From IMG/VR virus record IMGVR_UViG_2534682255_000020: a stretch of 4,917 nt of DNA, one strand, 5' to 3'. Source of the stretch: a virus. Taxonomy: Duplodnaviria > Heunggongvirae > Uroviricota > Caudoviricetes. The notes beneath the pieces were generated by a model. That model was not told the origin of the DNA, made no database searches, and worked only from the letters and a program-made list of their open reading frames with translations. The first letter of the stretch is position 1; each line of letters starts with the position of its first letter. Of the stretch, positions 458 to 4,916 are shown in pieces. Position numbers and translations under genes: made by a program.

Positions 458-1549
458 TCACCCCCTGAATCCCGGCGGAATTTCGGTATCCGGTTCAGAA
501 ATATGATTCACACAACGCTGGTTGTTCGTGCCGCTTACCGGGAGCAACCAGGGGTTTTCAAAATTCCGGTCCGGCCCAAAAAACGTCGTCGCTCGCTGAA
601 CAAATTCCGTTCCCGCTTTCCCGGTCGCCGCCAGGTATCTCGCGTAACGCCTCACACCATCCAGCATGGTCTCTGGTGGCACCCCCTCGCGCAATCTGGC
701 CTTCCAGGCACTGAAAGCGGATTTCTTCGGGTTTGCCCCAGCACGCAACGGGTATTCCCGCCAGACCTGTTCGAACACATCCGGATAATCCACTCGTCCC
801 ACAGACTGCCCGGTGCTTTCCGGGACTACCCGATCGGCTTCCCGCTGAATGGCGGAATCGGCTTCAGGCTGCTGCAGTTGGTGTGATTGCTCCGACCCTG
901 CGGTCATCACCTGCTGCACAGCGCCCGAATCGGCTTCCGGTGTCGTGCCTGCTGGCTGACCAGGATTGACGGTCTGAACATCCCCTGCCTGGTTCGTGGT
1001 GTTTTTTTTGCCATGAACCATAGTGTTTTTGTCCTGTTCCTGTTCTTTCTCCTGCTCCTGTTCCTGTTCTTGGCTTCGAAGCCCCTTAAAAGCCCCTTCG
1101 AAGCCCCTTACCGAATTTCGGCTATTATTCCGCCTCACATCCAGATGGAAATCCGTTTTATATCTGTCGTAAAACACTGACAGAAAAGCGTTTTCAGGTA
1201 ATGATGCATACTCATTCCTGACACCTGCACAACGGTTATCGCCAGGCTTCAACGTTTCCCCAACCTGCCAGGCTGCCATTTCATGGACCCAGACCATCTC
1301 TGCATCATGGTCATAGCTACAAAAACCAGCTTCAACAGCCCTTTTAAGCCCCTTTGAAGCCCCTTCCAGACCAAGCCCGGTTTCATGAGCAAGGTATAAA
1401 ACTGGCAGGTAATACAAACCCAGCATATTTGCGTGAGGGGATGTCATCAGGTAAAAAGCAACAACTTGCGCTTCTGCACCCGCCTTTCTAAGTTCTCTCC
1501 CCGTTTCTCCCAGCCAGAATCGCGGAGAAACTTTTGCGTAATCACGCAT
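458..1549 (-). CDS. Phage replication initiation protein: YdaU/DUF1376-like N-domain, EQ-repeat linker, DnaT-like C-terminal domain
   Basis: ORF 458-1660 in the track; I place the start at the internal ATG 1549-1547 (MRDYAKVSPRFWLGETGRELR...), which has a GAGG SD 5 nt upstream, whereas the ATG at 1660 has none. The N-terminal region (SPRFWLGETG...AFYLMTSPHANMLGLYYLP) resembles the YdaU/DUF1376 family. The C-terminus ends ...CVNHISEPDTEIPPGFRG, close to the C-terminal tail of E. coli DnaT as I recall it (...VNTVSEPDSQIPPGFRG). Position immediately upstream of the DnaC-like gene. Confidence 0.8.
   Translation of the reverse strand: MRDYAKVSPRFWLGETGRELRKAGAEAQVVAFYLMTSPHANMLGLYYLPVLYLAHETGLGLEGASKGLKRAVEAGFCSYDHDAEMVWVHEMAAWQVGETLKPGDNRCAGVRNEYASLPENAFLSVFYDRYKTDFHLDVRRNNSRNSVRGFEGAFKGLRSQEQEQEQEKEQEQDKNTMVHGKKNTTNQAGDVQTVNPGQPAGTTPEADSGAVQQVMTAGSEQSHQLQQPEADSAIQREADRVVPESTGQSVGRVDYPDVFEQVWREYPLRAGANPKKSAFSAWKARLREGVPPETMLDGVRRYARYLAATGKAGTEFVQRATTFFGPDRNFENPWLLPVSGTNNQRCVNHISEPDTEIPPGFRG
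1034..1072 (-). repeat. In-frame CTG/TTC-type trinucleotide repeat encoding a QEQEQEQEKEQEQ low-complexity linker in the replication protein
   Basis: Plus-strand ctgttcctgttctttctcctgctcctgttcctgttcttg; minus-strand translation gives QEQEQEQEKEQEQ between the N- and C-terminal domains. Confidence 0.8.
1079..1109. repeat. Three tandem 11-bp iterons (CGAAGCCCCTT / AAAAGCCCCTT / CGAAGCCCCTT); candidate origin iterons inside the rep gene
   Basis: AAGCCCCTT at 1079-1087, 1090-1098 and 1101-1109, an exact 11-bp period, directly abutting the EQ linker and followed by a more AT-rich stretch (about 1111-1200). Confidence 0.55.
1337..1367. repeat. Second cluster of the same 11-bp iteron (CAGCCCTTTT / AAGCCCCTTT / GAAGCCCCTTC)
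   Basis: AAGCCCCTT at 1346-1354 and 1357-1365 with a degenerate copy at 1337-1345; same orientation and 11-bp period as the 1079-1109 cluster. Confidence 0.5.
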
Positions 1550-1766
1550 GGCTACCTCATCTGGTGCCGAACCTTCCTCCGGATATAATCTGTGGTTCCC
1601 AATCGACAGAACCAGAGGAGGTTCGACATGTATTTTTTGAAAAGCCTTTATCAGGCTCATGTATTAAATGTTGCAGCAACAAACCGCTGGTGTAACAGCC
1701 CCGAAATGCTCCCGGATTACAGAGCCTGGCTGCGCGCCGAAACATACCTTCGTCTCGACATATTGA

Positions 1767-2289: not shown

Positions 2290-2715
2290 TTAATGCACAG
2301 CCAGAGTGTTTCCTGCCGGGCCACCACGATTCATCTGATCGAACAGAACGATCGCTGATGCAACGAAATCATCAATATCTTTCACCAGCCGTTCCTTCGT
2401 CTCTACCAACTCCCGAAAATAAGCGGAACTGTGGCTGCGCATTCGGGCCACCAGCGGAGGCGGCATCGCTTTTTCGATCGCTGGTAACAACGCCTGAATT
2501 TTTTTAACCGCATCAGGAGTGTCTTTCTCCACCCAGCGGAAAATTTTCTGAGTATTGCGAGCCATGGCTTCCGGATGGCTGTCGTCATACAGTTCCGGGA
2601 ACGTCATTCCCAGCTCGAAATACGCTTTGGTAATTTTCGCAGCCGGTACTTTTTCGCCGTCCGGATGCGCCCAGACATTCATCGCCATGCGGATGTGTTC
2701 ATGCTTGATTTTCAT
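2290..2715 (-). CDS. ydaT: YdaT-family protein (CII-like early regulator, sometimes annotated as toxin YdaT)
   Basis: 141-aa ORF beginning MKIKHEHI..., matching the N-terminus and length (about 140 aa) of Rac prophage YdaT as I recall it. Its ATG overlaps the stop of the upstream Cro-like gene (ATGA at 2715-2712). Confidence 0.8.
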   Translation of the reverse strand: MKIKHEHIRMAMNVWAHPDGEKVPAAKITKAYFELGMTFPELYDDSHPEAMARNTQKIFRWVEKDTPDAVKKIQALLPAIEKAMPPPLVARMRSHSSAYFRELVETKERLVKDIDDFVASAIVLFDQMNRGGPAGNTLAVH

Positions 2716-3014
2716 GAATCAACTCCATCAGATAAGCATGCACTACAATCACCTTCAGCATGAACTACATGTGTTTGCCCCAAACGAATGCCGCTCGCAT
2801 ACTCAGGCCAAATAAGCTCCCAATCATGGGGTCGTAGCTCCGCCCTACTTACTTGGCCTTCCGTCGCAGATTCGATCATAAGGGCGCGGGTTGGAGATAT
2901 AGCTGTTCGTCCAGACGCCATTTGCGATAAGTAAGATGGCGATACACCAAGTCTGGCCGCGAATTTCTTAGCATCACCAACCCTTAATGATTTAATAAAC
3001 TCTTTTAATGTCAT
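2712..3014 (-). CDS. ydaS: YdaS-family Cro-like HTH DNA-binding protein
   Basis: 100-aa ORF MTLKEFIKSLRVGDAKKFAARLGVSPSYLSQMASGRTAISPTRALMIESATEGQVSRAELRPHDW... with an HTH-like segment (AARLGVSPSYLSQMASGR). GAGGAAGG SD immediately upstream of ATG 3014-3012. First gene of the minus-strand operon, divergent from the regulator gene, as for cro. Confidence 0.8.
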   Translation of the reverse strand: MTLKEFIKSLRVGDAKKFAARLGVSPSYLSQMASGRTAISPTRALMIESATEGQVSRAELRPHDWELIWPEYASGIRLGQTHVVHAEGDCSACLSDGVDS

Positions 3015-3023
3015 ACCTTCCTC

Positions 3024-3090
3024 GGTTTAGTGTTTTTTTGCGAGTTTAGTGTTTAATAAACCATTAAGTCAAGTATTTGCTTGTTTAGTG
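3024..3090. promoter_or_regulatory. Operator-like direct repeats GTTTAGTG x3 in the divergent intergenic region
   Basis: GGTTTAGTGTTT 3024-3035, AGTTTAGTGTTT 3043-3054, TGTTTAGTGATT 3082-3093, arranged across the putative divergent promoters as in a lambdoid OR region. Confidence 0.5.
3043..3072 (-). promoter_or_regulatory. PR-like promoter for the ydaS-ydaT-rep-dnaC operon (-35 TTGACT, -10 TAAACT)
   Basis: On the minus strand: TTGACT (3072-3067), 18-nt spacer, TAAACT (3048-3043), followed by the leader and GAGGAAGG SD of the Cro-like gene. The -10 overlaps a GTTTAGTG operator-like repeat. Confidence 0.45.
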
Positions 3091-3105
3091 ATTACTAAAG
3101 ATAAT
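3077..3105 (+). promoter_or_regulatory. Candidate PRM-like promoter for the regulator gene (-10 GATAAT 3100-3105; weak -35 TTGCTT 3077-3082); possibly leaderless transcript
   Basis: GATAAT ends 6 nt before ATG 3112 and there is no SD upstream of that ATG, which would fit a leaderless mRNA as for lambda cI from PRM. The -35 is poor. Confidence 0.3.
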
Positions 3106-3111
3106 TACCAC

Positions 3112-3483
3112 ATGCAAAAAAAAGAAATTCGCCGTTTACGTCTCAAGGAGTGGTTTAAAGATAAAACTCTGCCACCCAAAGAGAAGAGCTACCTATCTCA
3201 ACTAATGAGTGGGAGAGCCTCGTTTGGAGAAAAGGCTGCCAGAAGAATAGAGCAAACATACGGGATGCCGGAAGGGTATCTGGATGCGGAATACGCAGAA
3301 CAACCGGGGGGTTCTCCACCACATGCAGGGTTAACGTCTAATCAACTGGAATTATTGCAGATTTTTTCAGCCTTCCCTGAGGATGAGCAACGCCAGATAA
3401 TCAGCGAGTTAAAGCAGAAAAAAGAATCAATGGAAGATCTCATAGCGAGATGGATTGCGGCGCAAAAATGCCGCCGCGCCTGA
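3112..3483 (+). CDS. paaR2: PaaR2-like transcriptional regulator (123 aa); first gene of the three-component TA operon and candidate prophage repressor
   Basis: ORF 3049-3483 (GTG start in the track); I prefer ATG 3112 (MQKKEIRRLRLKEWFKDKTL...). Contains an HTH-like segment (SYLSQLMSGRASFGEKAARRIEQTYGMPEGYLD). Lies directly upstream of the antitoxin and toxin genes, divergent from the Cro-like gene. Confidence 0.7.
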   Translation: MQKKEIRRLRLKEWFKDKTLPPKEKSYLSQLMSGRASFGEKAARRIEQTYGMPEGYLDAEYAEQPGGSPPHAGLTSNQLELLQIFSAFPEDEQRQIISELKQKKESMEDLIARWIAAQKCRRA

Positions 3484-3503: not shown

Positions 3504-3695
3504 ATGAATAGAGCCCTTTCACCAATGGTTTCTGAATTTGAAACCATTGAACAAGAAAACAGTTACAACGAATGGCTGCGTGCGAAAGTAGCAACGAGCC
3601 TTGCAGATCCGCGCCCAGCAATTCCCCATGACGAAGTTGAGCGCAGAATGGCAGAACGCTTTGCTAAGATGCGCAAGGAACGGAGCAAGCAGTAA
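3504..3695 (+). CDS. paaA2: PaaA2-type antitoxin (63 aa) of a ParE-family toxin
   Basis: MNRALSPMVSEFETIEQENSYNEWLRAKVATSLADPRPAIPHDEVERRMAERFAKMRKERSKQ; exactly 63 aa, charged and helix-prone, the length I recall for PaaA2. GGAGG SD 4 nt upstream of the ATG. Stop TAA 3693-3695 lies 1 nt before the toxin ATG. Confidence 0.8.
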   Translation: MNRALSPMVSEFETIEQENSYNEWLRAKVATSLADPRPAIPHDEVERRMAERFAKMRKERSKQ

Positions 3696-3696
3696 A

Positions 3697-3975
3697 ATGT
3701 TACCCGTGTTATGGCTTGAAAGCGCAGATACCGACCTAGATGATATAACTAGTTATATTGCTCGTTTCGACATAGATGCGGCTGAACGCTTATGGCAGCG
3801 ATTAAGGGGTTGTGTGCTGCCGTTATCCGAACATCCGTATTTATACCCACCAAGCGACAGAGTACCTGGCTTGCGTGAGATTGTAGCCCACCCTAACTAT
3901 ATAATTCTATACCGCGTAACAACATCAAGCGTTGAAGTAGTAAACGTGATCCACGCAAGACGCCAGTTTCCCTAA
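3697..3975 (+). CDS. parE2: ParE-family type II toxin (92 aa), ParE2-type
   Basis: MLPVLWLESADTDLDDITSYIARFDIDAAERLWQRLRGCVLPLSEHPYLYPPSDRVPGLREIVAHPNYIILYRVTTSSVEVVNVIHARRQFP; the C-terminal signature (GLREI...YRV...V.V.NVIHARR) is typical of RelE/ParE-fold toxins. Tightly coupled to the upstream antitoxin gene. Confidence 0.85.
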   Translation: MLPVLWLESADTDLDDITSYIARFDIDAAERLWQRLRGCVLPLSEHPYLYPPSDRVPGLREIVAHPNYIILYRVTTSSVEVVNVIHARRQFP

Positions 3976-3993: not shown

Positions 3994-4040
3994 ACATAAC
4001 AACCGCAACGACTTTATCAAAAGCGTTGTGTTTGTTATGT
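3994..4040 (+). terminator. Imperfect 17-bp stem / 13-nt loop hairpin downstream of parE2 (candidate terminator of the TA operon)
   Basis: ACATAACAACCGCAACG (3994-4010) pairs with CGTTGTGTTTGTTATGT (4024-4040) with one mismatch and one G-U. It starts 19 nt after the parE2 stop. There is no U-tract immediately after the stem; a T-run lies at 4052-4057. Confidence 0.4.
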
Positions 4041-4045
4041 CCCGC

Positions 4046-4090
4046 GGTTTAGTTTTTACTTGACTTAAGTTTAATGTTTATTAAACTAAA
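4046..4090 (+). promoter_or_regulatory. PL-like outward promoter and operator module (GGTTTAGT repeat, -35 TTGACT 4060-4065, palindrome AGTTTAAT-gttt-ATTAAACT 4068-4087, -10 TAAACT 4082-4087)
   Basis: This segment is a near-identical inverted copy of the PR-like module at about 3043-3075 (shared TTTAGT, TTTAATAAAC, ATTAA and TTAAGTCAAGTA blocks). It contains a perfect 8-bp-arm palindrome. Confidence 0.45.
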
Positions 4091-4323
4091 AATACCAACC
4101 ACCCCGCCCCACAGAACGCAGGGAAATACTTCGAGTTACCCGGCAGTGGTCAGGGGTTAAGTAGCCAGCCCGAGGCGTATGAACATGACGGCAGGGTTCA
4201 ACTTTAATAACTATGCAGCAGTTTTTTGTTCCGCTACCCCGGCGTTAAGGGGAAACAGAGGGTTTCTCAGTGGGCGAAGTCAAACATCAGAATGGAAGGC
4301 ATCCCGGGATCGGCAAAGAAGCA

Positions 4324-4358
4324 GCAATGGCGCTTTATATTGACATCAGCGCCATTGC
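4324..4358 (-). terminator. Perfect 11-bp inverted repeat (GCAATGGCGCT - 13 nt - AGCGCCATTGC); candidate terminator of the zinc-ribbon gene or a protein-binding palindrome
   Basis: Stem 4324-4334 / 4348-4358, GC-rich, about 45 nt downstream of the minus-strand stop at 4405. On the minus-strand RNA it is followed by UGCUUCUUUGCCG, only moderately U-rich. Confidence 0.4.
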
Positions 4359-4404
4359 AGGACAGGTAAGAGTTATCAGAGCGGTAACTAAGCGGTATGC
4401 GCCT

Positions 4405-4605
4405 TTACTTCAGAAAGTCTCTGGTGAGTGCACCGAAGATATTGTCAACGATTTCGTCATCGAACTGCGAGGACTCATCTTCAGTTACAAGGTGACCACA
4501 ATTTTTGCAGATGGCTCCCGCGAAACTGTCAGAGCCCTGCGGCTTAAAGGATGTGTCAAAGACTTCGCCACCACATTCTGGGCAAGAAAACTTGATTGTA
4601 TTCAT
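4405..4605 (-). CDS. Small zinc-ribbon protein (66 aa; CPECGG ... CKNCGH), function unknown
   Basis: ORF 4405-4611 in the track (TTG start); I prefer ATG 4605-4603 (MNTIKFSCPECGGEVFDTSFKPQGSDSFAGAICKNCGHLVTEDESSQFDDEIVDNIFGALTRDFLK), preceded by a strong GAGAGGAA SD with a 7-nt spacer. Two CxxCG knuckles about 20 residues apart and an acidic C-terminal tail. First-position G is about 36% of codons. Confidence 0.6.
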   Translation of the reverse strand: MNTIKFSCPECGGEVFDTSFKPQGSDSFAGAICKNCGHLVTEDESSQFDDEIVDNIFGALTRDFLK

Positions 4606-4697
4606 AACCAATTTCCTCTCGAGTAACAGACCCCTCAGAGGATACCACCTCGCCTGACGTGGTTAAAAGCAGGCAACGCTAACCACAAGGAGCCGAC

Positions 4698-4916
4698 ATG
4701 CAGAAACGAGACCCCGTCATCATCGCGCCAGACTATACCGATGATGAACTTTATGAGTGGATGCACCAGAAAATTAATGCAGCGCAGGATCTGAAATGGG
4801 CCAATGAAGCCAGGGCTAAGCAGGCTGAAAATCTGTCCGCTCTGGAGCAGGATATCACCAATCTGGAAAAAGCAGCGGCATTAAGCATTGCCAGAATGAT
4901 TACATACCCGCGTTAA
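4698..4916 (+). CDS. Hypothetical protein (72 aa), likely first gene of the early-left-type operon
   Basis: ATG 4698 preceded by AAGGAG SD with a 5-nt spacer; MQKRDPVIIAPDYTDDELYEWMHQKINAAQDLKWANEARAKQAENLSALEQDITNLEKAAALSIARMITYPR; stop TAA 4914-4916. No family recognised. Confidence 0.5.
   Translation: MQKRDPVIIAPDYTDDELYEWMHQKINAAQDLKWANEARAKQAENLSALEQDITNLEKAAALSIARMITYPR

Follow-up and report, generated by a model that had tools for sequence, protein, structure and literature searches.

We analysed a window of 4,917 bp (the whole stretch of DNA presented here), whose segment 2600-4400 is shared at 100% identity with many E. coli O157:H7 chromosomes. Judged by its sequence, this segment is the immunity region of the cryptic prophage CP-933P/Sp12. 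The whole window was found in no complete E. coli genome (best match 82% coverage, 97.8% identity) because the replication module to the left of ydaT differs from that of O157:H7, and the immunity module therefore sits here on a mosaic backbone and is common to such backbones. In the window, the replication module (1-2290) comprises a 169-aa ORF of the ECs1072 family, a 400-aa initiator and a DnaC-like gene, and its counterpart in O157:H7 CP-933P (locus L001, 3959-5668) encodes a 320-aa helix-turn-helix protein and an ATP-binding protein. Two long ORFs on opposite strands overlap in the interval from the initiator gene to ydaT (1592-2083 on the plus strand and 1767-2327 on the minus strand), neither with a Pfam match; for the equivalent part of related genomes RefSeq lists an 'ECs1072 family phage-associated protein'. 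The initiator-like gene (400 aa, 458-1660, minus strand) contains five exact copies of AAGCCCCTT, at 1079, 1090, 1101, 1346 and 1357, which occupy 1079-1109 and 1346-1365 of the window with 11-bp phasing inside each group and adjoin low-complexity sequence (about 1020-1075) that codes for an EQ repeat. This array looks like the iterons of a replication origin placed within the initiator gene, an arrangement known from lambda O.

The leftward genes of the immunity region are ydaT (2290-2715, minus strand), encoding a CII-like regulator (Pfam YdaT_toxin; PMC9986795), and ydaS (2712-3014, minus strand), encoding a Cro-like regulator of 100 aa (Pfam YdaS_toxin and HTH_3). YdaT binds TTGATTN6AATCAA at the ydaS/ydaT junction, where its site has been footprinted (PMC9986795), and the window holds a perfect match to this motif, the YdaT box TTGATTttcatgAATCAA at 2705-2722, which is the published high-affinity site OM. 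Divergently transcribed from ydaS is paaR2 (3112-3483, plus strand), encoding a CI-like repressor of 123 aa that is 100% identical to its counterpart in O157:H7 genomes and gave no domain match in a Pfam search. It is followed on the same strand by paaA2 (3504-3695; Pfam PaaA2) and parE2 (3697-3975; Pfam ParE_toxin). The N-terminal domain of PaaR2 is present in the PDB as 'Phage repressor protein CI' (7nkv, 8c3k, 8c3l) and YdaS as 'antirepressor protein Cro' (8c7k, 8co2); a literature search found no open paper on PaaR2-DNA or YdaS-DNA contacts. The paaR2-ydaS intergenic region (3015-3111) is 97 bp, the same length as in PMC8630535. At the other end of the operon, 19 nt past the parE2 stop, lies a strong hairpin with 22-nt arms (3994-4040; RNA fold -24 kcal/mol, z = -4.07; 0 of 200 shuffles fold equally well) with no T-run directly after it. 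Lying immediately ahead of the OL/PL region, this hairpin may serve the paaR2-paaA2-parE2 operon as terminator or insulator; an Rfam scan of the window returned nothing but a chance miRNA-like match on it.

A consensus scan located PR933P, reading leftward into ydaS-ydaT (3043-3072, minus strand; -35 TTGACT at 3072->3067, 18-nt spacer, -10 TAAACT at 3048->3043), and PL933P, reading rightward (4060-4087, plus strand; -35 TTGACT at 4060-4065, 16-nt spacer, -10 TAAACT at 4082-4087). The hexamers of the two promoters are identical, and the PR region is an inverted copy of the PL region, with a 12-nt perfect inverted repeat involving the PR -35 region. PRM933P, a weak promoter giving a leaderless paaR2 mRNA (3077-3112, plus strand), was identified by inspection, with -35 TTGCTT at 3077-3082, -10 GATAAT at 3100-3105 and a +1 that coincides with the A of the start codon at 3112. 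The consensus scan did not call PRM933P, whose -35 matches only three of six bases, and this fits its reported low basal activity. Over the roughly 600 nt downstream of PL933P (window 4088-4700) there is no annotated plus-strand gene, and Rfam recorded no known RNA in this region. A PL933P transcript would run antisense to a small zinc-ribbon gene (ECs_2282 family; 4405-4611, minus strand) and then reach ydfC (4698-4916), with dicB located further downstream of ydfC in O157:H7.

The 8-mer GTTTAGTG is found on the plus strand at 3025-3032, 3044-3051 and 3083-3090 (copies 1, 2 and 3; start-to-start spacings of 19 and 39 bp) and nowhere else in the 4,917-bp window, for a chance expectation of 0.13 copies; at least three copies were seen in 0 of 200 dinucleotide-preserving shuffles. 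A fourth copy, GGTTTAGT, recurs at 4046-4053, 7 bp upstream of the -35 element of the right-hand promoter (4060-4065). An earlier note made from the sequence alone had drawn attention to three copies with these spacings and to a fourth beside the right-hand promoter; the three are exact matches, and the fourth is where it was said to be. The same note had the repeats overlapping the -10 of the leftward promoter and the -35 of the regulator promoter, and here only the first part stands: copy 2 does overlap the PR -10 (3048->3043), but copy 3 misses the PRM -35, beginning right after TTGCTT (3077-3082) and filling the PRM -35/-10 spacer. Copy 1 is located downstream of the inferred ydaS transcription start and ahead of the ydaS Shine-Dalgarno GGAAGG (3022->3017). 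A T7 tract (3033-3039) lies between copies 1 and 2, about at the inferred PR933P start point. A longer direct repeat pairs 3037-3060 with 3076-3099 (83% over 24 nt).

Alignment with related loci indicates that the conserved unit is an 18-bp inverted repeat, of which the GTTTAGTG 8-mer is the left half. The best four 18-mer palindrome matches in the window are at 3083-3100 (16/18), 3044-3061 (15/18), 4069-4086 (14/18) and 4047-4064 (14/18). The first two of these fit the half-site consensus GTTTAGTAA and overlap PRM and PR, respectively, and only two of the three GTTTAGTG copies, those at 3044 and 3083, belong to full palindromes.

The CP-933P immunity region has been studied experimentally by EMSA, DNase I footprinting, reporter fusions and single-cell assays (Jurenas et al. 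2021, mBio, PMC8630535). PRM933P and PR933P were mapped by 5' RACE and PR933P activity was reported, and the leaderless start of paaR2 was established by 5' RACE together with N-terminal sequencing (PMC8630535). PaaR2 and YdaS both specifically shift and footprint the 97-bp intergenic region; the DNase I footprint of PaaR2 is continuous over about 78 bp and that of YdaS covers 27 + 32 bp, both overlapping both promoters, and YdaS needs a higher concentration to protect PR933P than PRM933P, which is already protected at low concentration (PMC8630535). The 76-bp span from 3025 to 3100 is consistent with this PaaR2 footprint. The paper describes four inverted repeats of 18 bp at equal spacing (half-site consensus GTTTAGTAA), IR1 lying over PRM and the well-conserved IR3 over PR, with IR2 and IR4 conserved in one half only; pseudosymmetrical operators OR1-3 overlap IR1, IR3 and IR4, and OL1-3 were reported at PL933P, a second promoter to the right of parE2 (PMC8630535). 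Both proteins repress PRM933P, PR933P and PL933P, the last about 100-fold by either PaaR2 or YdaS, and PRM is weakly activated by low PaaR2, a protein that octamerises in solution (PMC8630535). Dual-reporter flow cytometry and microscopy revealed bistable, heritable expression in single cells; stop-codon mutants of each regulator lose one subpopulation, and bistability is gone if either regulator is mutated (PMC8630535). The authors leave open the exact sequences bound by each protein, which may be direct or inverted repeats (PMC8630535). From the text of that paper the published names appear to map to 3083-3100 (IR1), 3063-3080 (IR2), 3044-3061 (IR3) and 3025-3042 (IR4), in which case copies 1, 2 and 3 of GTTTAGTG would fall in IR4, IR3 and IR1, respectively, and copy 4 in the OL region.

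Conservation was assessed over 107 loci with PaaR2 relatives, 80 of them from IMG/VR (47-100% identity) and 27 from contigs representing one genome per species (43-76% identity). The latter come from Photorhabdus, Xenorhabdus, Yersinia, Erwinia, Morganella, Raoultella and Enterobacter and from the Burkholderiales Mycoavidus, Glomeribacter and Massilia. Three cultured phages (Klebsiella phage 5 LV-2017, Burkholderia phage vB_E177 and Escherichia phage Evi), added to give 110 loci, have the same operator layout. Aligned by anchoring on the back-to-back -35 block GTCAAGTATTTGCTT, 106 of the 107 loci follow one layout, consisting of a dyad GTTTAttaAacACTAAAC, about 5 nt, the -35 block, a second dyad GTTTAGnnnTTACTAAtC, a -10 element (AAAAT or GATAAT), 6-7 nt and then the ATG. 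The distance from anchor to ATG is 44 nt in most loci and 92-123 nt in Photorhabdus and Xenorhabdus. The dyad at 3044-3061 has a counterpart at the same position in 106 of 107 related loci, and that at 3083-3100 appears in relatives as GTTTAGnnnTTACTAATC; the latter lies in a promoter spacer, a place without a sequence requirement, yet is conserved, which counts in favour of the operator reading. Both OR dyads are thus conserved across Enterobacterales and some Burkholderiales, and the earlier note, which had staked its proposal on conservation in related prophages, is upheld well beyond E. coli. A YdaS-like partner is co-conserved in 20 of 24 representatives (50-76% identity over residues 1-72). 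The paaA2-parE2 cassette, by comparison, is restricted to the E. coli-type group (64 of 110 loci). Distant relatives that keep the operators all lack it but still have both regulators, which makes the cassette cargo inserted between the repressor gene and OL.

A weight matrix built from the sites of relatives in other genera has the consensus GTTTAGTAATTACTAAAC, independently reproducing the published half-site. Its outer positions (G1, T2-T4, A5) carry the most information and its centre varies, as expected for helix-turn-helix dimers. Relative to a shuffle 95th percentile of 10.7, the matrix gives 22.5 for the palindrome at 3083-3100 (left half GTTTAGTGA, containing copy 3, and right half TTACTAAAG), which fills the PRM933P spacer, and 22.4 for that at 3044-3061 (left half GTTTAGTGT, containing copy 2, and right half TTAATAAAC), which overlaps the PR933P -10. 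The full palindrome of OL at 4069-4086 (halves GTTTAATGT and TTATTAAAC), which was left out of the matrix training set, scores 17.3, and its right half overlaps the PL -10; an overlapping alternative register at 4076-4093 scores 11.2, and the site at 4047-4064 (halves GTTTAGTTT and TTACTTGAC), which contains copy 4 and has a good left half only, scores 8.4. The OL cluster spans 4047-4093, with at least two sites at the right-hand promoter. Across the loci of about 5 kb from 25 representative relatives, no score reaches 11 outside the upstream pair and one or two sites that follow the regulator gene, with one weak exception; these downstream sites are found at distances from +444 to +2197.

Copy 1 behaves differently from the dyads and, on the alignments, is a lone, lineage-restricted half-site. 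It has a half-site score of 11.3 (3025-3032) and is poor as a full 18-mer (3025-3042), whose right half (3034-3042) shows no conservation. Its 8-mer is invariant in the 54 CP-933P-like loci, in which 7 of the 12 variable alignment columns fall at 3033-3043 beside it. The neighbouring T tract is T6, T7, T8 or C-interrupted among otherwise near-identical prophages (loci L029-L093), so that the spacing from copy 1 to copy 2 is 18, 19 or 20 bp and the length of the ydaS leader also changes. Diverged counterparts of copy 1 occur in the group at 71-74% identity and in Photorhabdus (17 bp), and none is evident in the other genera among the related loci compared. The extended direct repeat (3037-3060/3076-3099) is specific to CP-933P-like loci.

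The nominal IR2 (about 3063-3080), published as unconserved in one half, lies over the back-to-back -35 elements and is not scored as an operator by the matrix built from relatives; GTCAAGTATTTGCTT is conserved there because two -35 hexamers occupy it, and we do not retain IR2 as an operator. A fifth candidate at 2983-3000, in the first ydaS codons, has a perfect half-site GTTTATTAA on the minus strand at 2992-3000, roughly in phase with the operator series. It too was rejected, with a full-site score of 7.5, inside the shuffle range, and DNA that is unconserved in the 71-74% sister group though the protein is conserved there. This candidate is probably a chance match, and it falls outside the published footprints because these used only the 97-bp intergenic fragment.

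Taken together, we propose, with a probability of roughly 0.93, that PaaR2 and YdaS compete for shared 18-bp dyads at PR, PRM and PL and that bistability results. Both proteins would recognise 18-bp dyads of consensus GTTTAGTAA (left half) and TTACTAAAC (right half). PaaR2 on 3044-3061, helped by the lone half-site at 3025-3032 just past the start point, would occlude PR933P and turn the lytic-type operon off, and occupancy of 3083-3100, by PaaR2 probably at high concentration, would occlude PRM933P and turn paaR2-paaA2-parE2 off. The cluster at 4047-4093 would control PL933P, which reads away from the cassette, and mutual repression through shared sites would produce two heritable expression states. 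Binding, footprints, repression, weak autoactivation and bistability are published, and site conservation, the palindromic unit and the OR/OL layout were computed here; which protein prefers which site and what the lone half-site does are inferred.

An alternative reading makes direct repeats the recognised units, with a PaaR2 octamer seated on an in-phase array of GTTTAGTG about 19-20 bp apart and wrapping the DNA, in place of the pairwise dyads of lambda CI. The three exact 8-mers do share one orientation at about two-helical-turn multiples (19 and 39 bp), the longer direct repeat extends this likeness to 24 nt at 83%, and the continuous footprint of about 78 bp, the octameric state of PaaR2 and the authors' openness to direct-repeat recognition (PMC8630535) all suit an array. 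Across genera, however, it is the dyad that is conserved, on both halves and with a variable centre, a pattern typical of helix-turn-helix dimers, whereas the extended direct repeat and copy 1 are lineage-specific and the change in copy 1-2 spacing from 18 to 20 bp among near-identical prophages argues against strict phasing. We consider a pure direct-repeat code unlikely. The shared-dyad switch is also preferred over an explanation in which the repeats are promoter elements only, recurring by promoter duplication. That AGTTTA is the reverse complement of the -10 TAAACT of PR933P and PL933P, that copy 2 and the right half of 4069-4086 overlap the -10 elements of PR and PL, and that these two regions are inverted copies would all follow from it, but copy 3 lies in a promoter spacer and copy 1 downstream of a start point, conservation across genera extends to those halves of both dyads that lie outside promoter elements, and published footprints and repression assays show protein binding (PMC8630535), which makes this explanation very improbable.

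The position of the repeats upstream of an operon containing paaA2-parE2 is also what would be expected of an autoregulatory operator bound by PaaA2-ParE2, as in classical type II toxin-antitoxin systems. Yet none of the distant relatives has paaA2 or parE2, although every one retains the operators, the regulator and the Cro-like partner, so that the operators persist where such a system is missing, and several of them have the downstream site only about 90-140 bp past the regulator stop. PaaA2, moreover, matches only the short PaaA2 family in Pfam and no DNA-binding domain, and the abstract of PMC8630535 credits regulation to PaaR2, YdaS and YdaT; control by the toxin-antitoxin proteins is hardly credible. 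Equally far-fetched is coincidence, by which a short AT-rich word would recur in an intergenic region that is itself rich in A and T: three or more copies appeared in none of the 200 shuffles and both position and sequence are conserved in 106 of 107 loci from several bacterial families. The promoter-only, toxin-antitoxin and chance explanations are all rejected.

The shared-dyad switch corresponds to the CP-933P (Sp12) OR/OL described by Jurenas et al. (PMC8630535), the two being the same sequence with matching intergenic length, half-site consensus, PRM, PR and PL promoters and leaderless paaR2. The feature is therefore correct but already known, its operators, binding proteins, three promoters and bistability having been published in 2021 for this sequence. 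The earlier note, working without these data, had inferred the correct mechanism from the letters alone: its bistable repressor/Cro switch with operators on both sides agrees with the published binding, footprints, repression and bistability, and the specificity it judged unlike that of lambda or 434 is consistent with the published half-site consensus GTTTAGTAA (PMC8630535). Beyond that paper, the comparison indicates that only the two OR dyads and the OL site are conserved across genera, that copy 1 is lineage-restricted and that IR2 is unsupported by conservation.

The organization resembles the lambda CI/Cro switch in its divergent repressor and cro promoters in a short intergenic region (PRM by inspection, matching the published 5' RACE), in shared dyad operators, here two full dyads and one or two half-sites over both promoters, in a distal second cluster at an early promoter (OL/PL, 4047-4093), and in a leaderless repressor mRNA. 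As in lambda, the effect of the repressor on its own promoter turns from activation at low dose into repression at high dose, the Cro-like protein would have the opposite site preference, and downstream of the repressor gene lies a cargo operon (rexAB in lambda, paaA2-parE2 in CP-933P). Unlike lambda, CP-933P has an unrelated operator sequence, four published repeats at about 19-20 bp spacing in place of three operators (PMC8630535), a repressor lacking the S24 domain and, as CII analogue, YdaT, a POU-like tetramer.

Comparison with the RacR/YdaS/YdaT and DicA/DicC regions of the Rac and Qin prophages of E. coli K-12 covered gene order, regulator proteins and the YdaT box. Gene order and the YdaS/YdaT-type Cro and CII analogues are alike, the YdaT box is near-identical and cross-binding by YdaT has been shown, and dicB/ydfC-type genes lie downstream of PL. 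The proteins differ, with CP-933P YdaS and YdaT only 26% and 31% identical to those of Rac (PMC8630535) and PaaR2 only 27% identical to DicA of Qin (E = 4e-4), and Rac YdaT also binds the intergenic region whereas CP-933P YdaT does not.

Phage P22 also has 18-bp dyads as C2/Cro operators, with AT-rich outer positions (TTTA...TAAA). A P22-like specificity was rejected, the annotated P22 OR/OL sites scoring at most 2.4 on the PaaR2-family matrix, and BLASTP of PaaR2 against P22 C2 and of YdaS against P22 Cro found no significant similarity. The CP-933P operators are distinct from those of P22 as well as from those of lambda and 434.

PaaR2 departs from lambdoid repressors in being 123 aa long and lacking an S24 (LexA-like) autocleavage domain. 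Six relatives (L017 from Yersinia aleksiciae, L018 from Erwinia, L021, L022, L025 and L026) have regulators of 209-222 aa in which a Peptidase_S24 C-terminal domain is joined to a PaaR2-like N-terminal domain, with regulator genes located at 2501 to about 3150 of their loci, and they carry the same operators as the PaaR2 loci. Their N-terminal domains are 46-76% identical to that of PaaR2 by BLASTP local alignment, or 61-76% where the match is limited to about residues 1-58. PaaR2 is accordingly a CI-type DNA-binding domain with a different, short C-terminal module, CI-like in function and not a canonical CI-S24 repressor. This domain swap may uncouple the switch from SOS induction.

A more speculative reading would have the PaaR2 octamer wrap the control region on in-phase half-sites (3025, 3044, 3083 and a weak one at 3063) in place of the pairwise dimer cooperativity of lambda CI and, separately, the operator specificity common to repressors with swappable C termini produce cross-immunity; we regard it as unlikely. 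If the octamer-array part were true, the lone half-site at 3025 and the polymorphic T6-T8 tract would tune the set-point of the switch between otherwise identical prophages.

The discovery value of these results is small, as the operators, proteins, promoters and bistability are already published and structures of both DNA-binding proteins are in the PDB. What is added is a cross-genus operator consensus, which sets the deeply conserved parts of the switch (two OR dyads and the OL dyad) apart from the lineage-specific ones (the 3025 half-site and the nominal IR2), and evidence that the toxin-antitoxin cassette and the C-terminal domain of the repressor are both swappable. These comparative results could guide mutagenesis toward the exact binding sequences left open by Jurenas et al. 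(PMC8630535). The occurrence of one operator specificity across Enterobacterales and Burkholderiales, under repressors with interchangeable C-terminal modules (S24-cleavable or PaaR2-type), could mean that prophages are cross-immune across genera, and the exchange of these modules could be a route to prophages that are not inducible by SOS.
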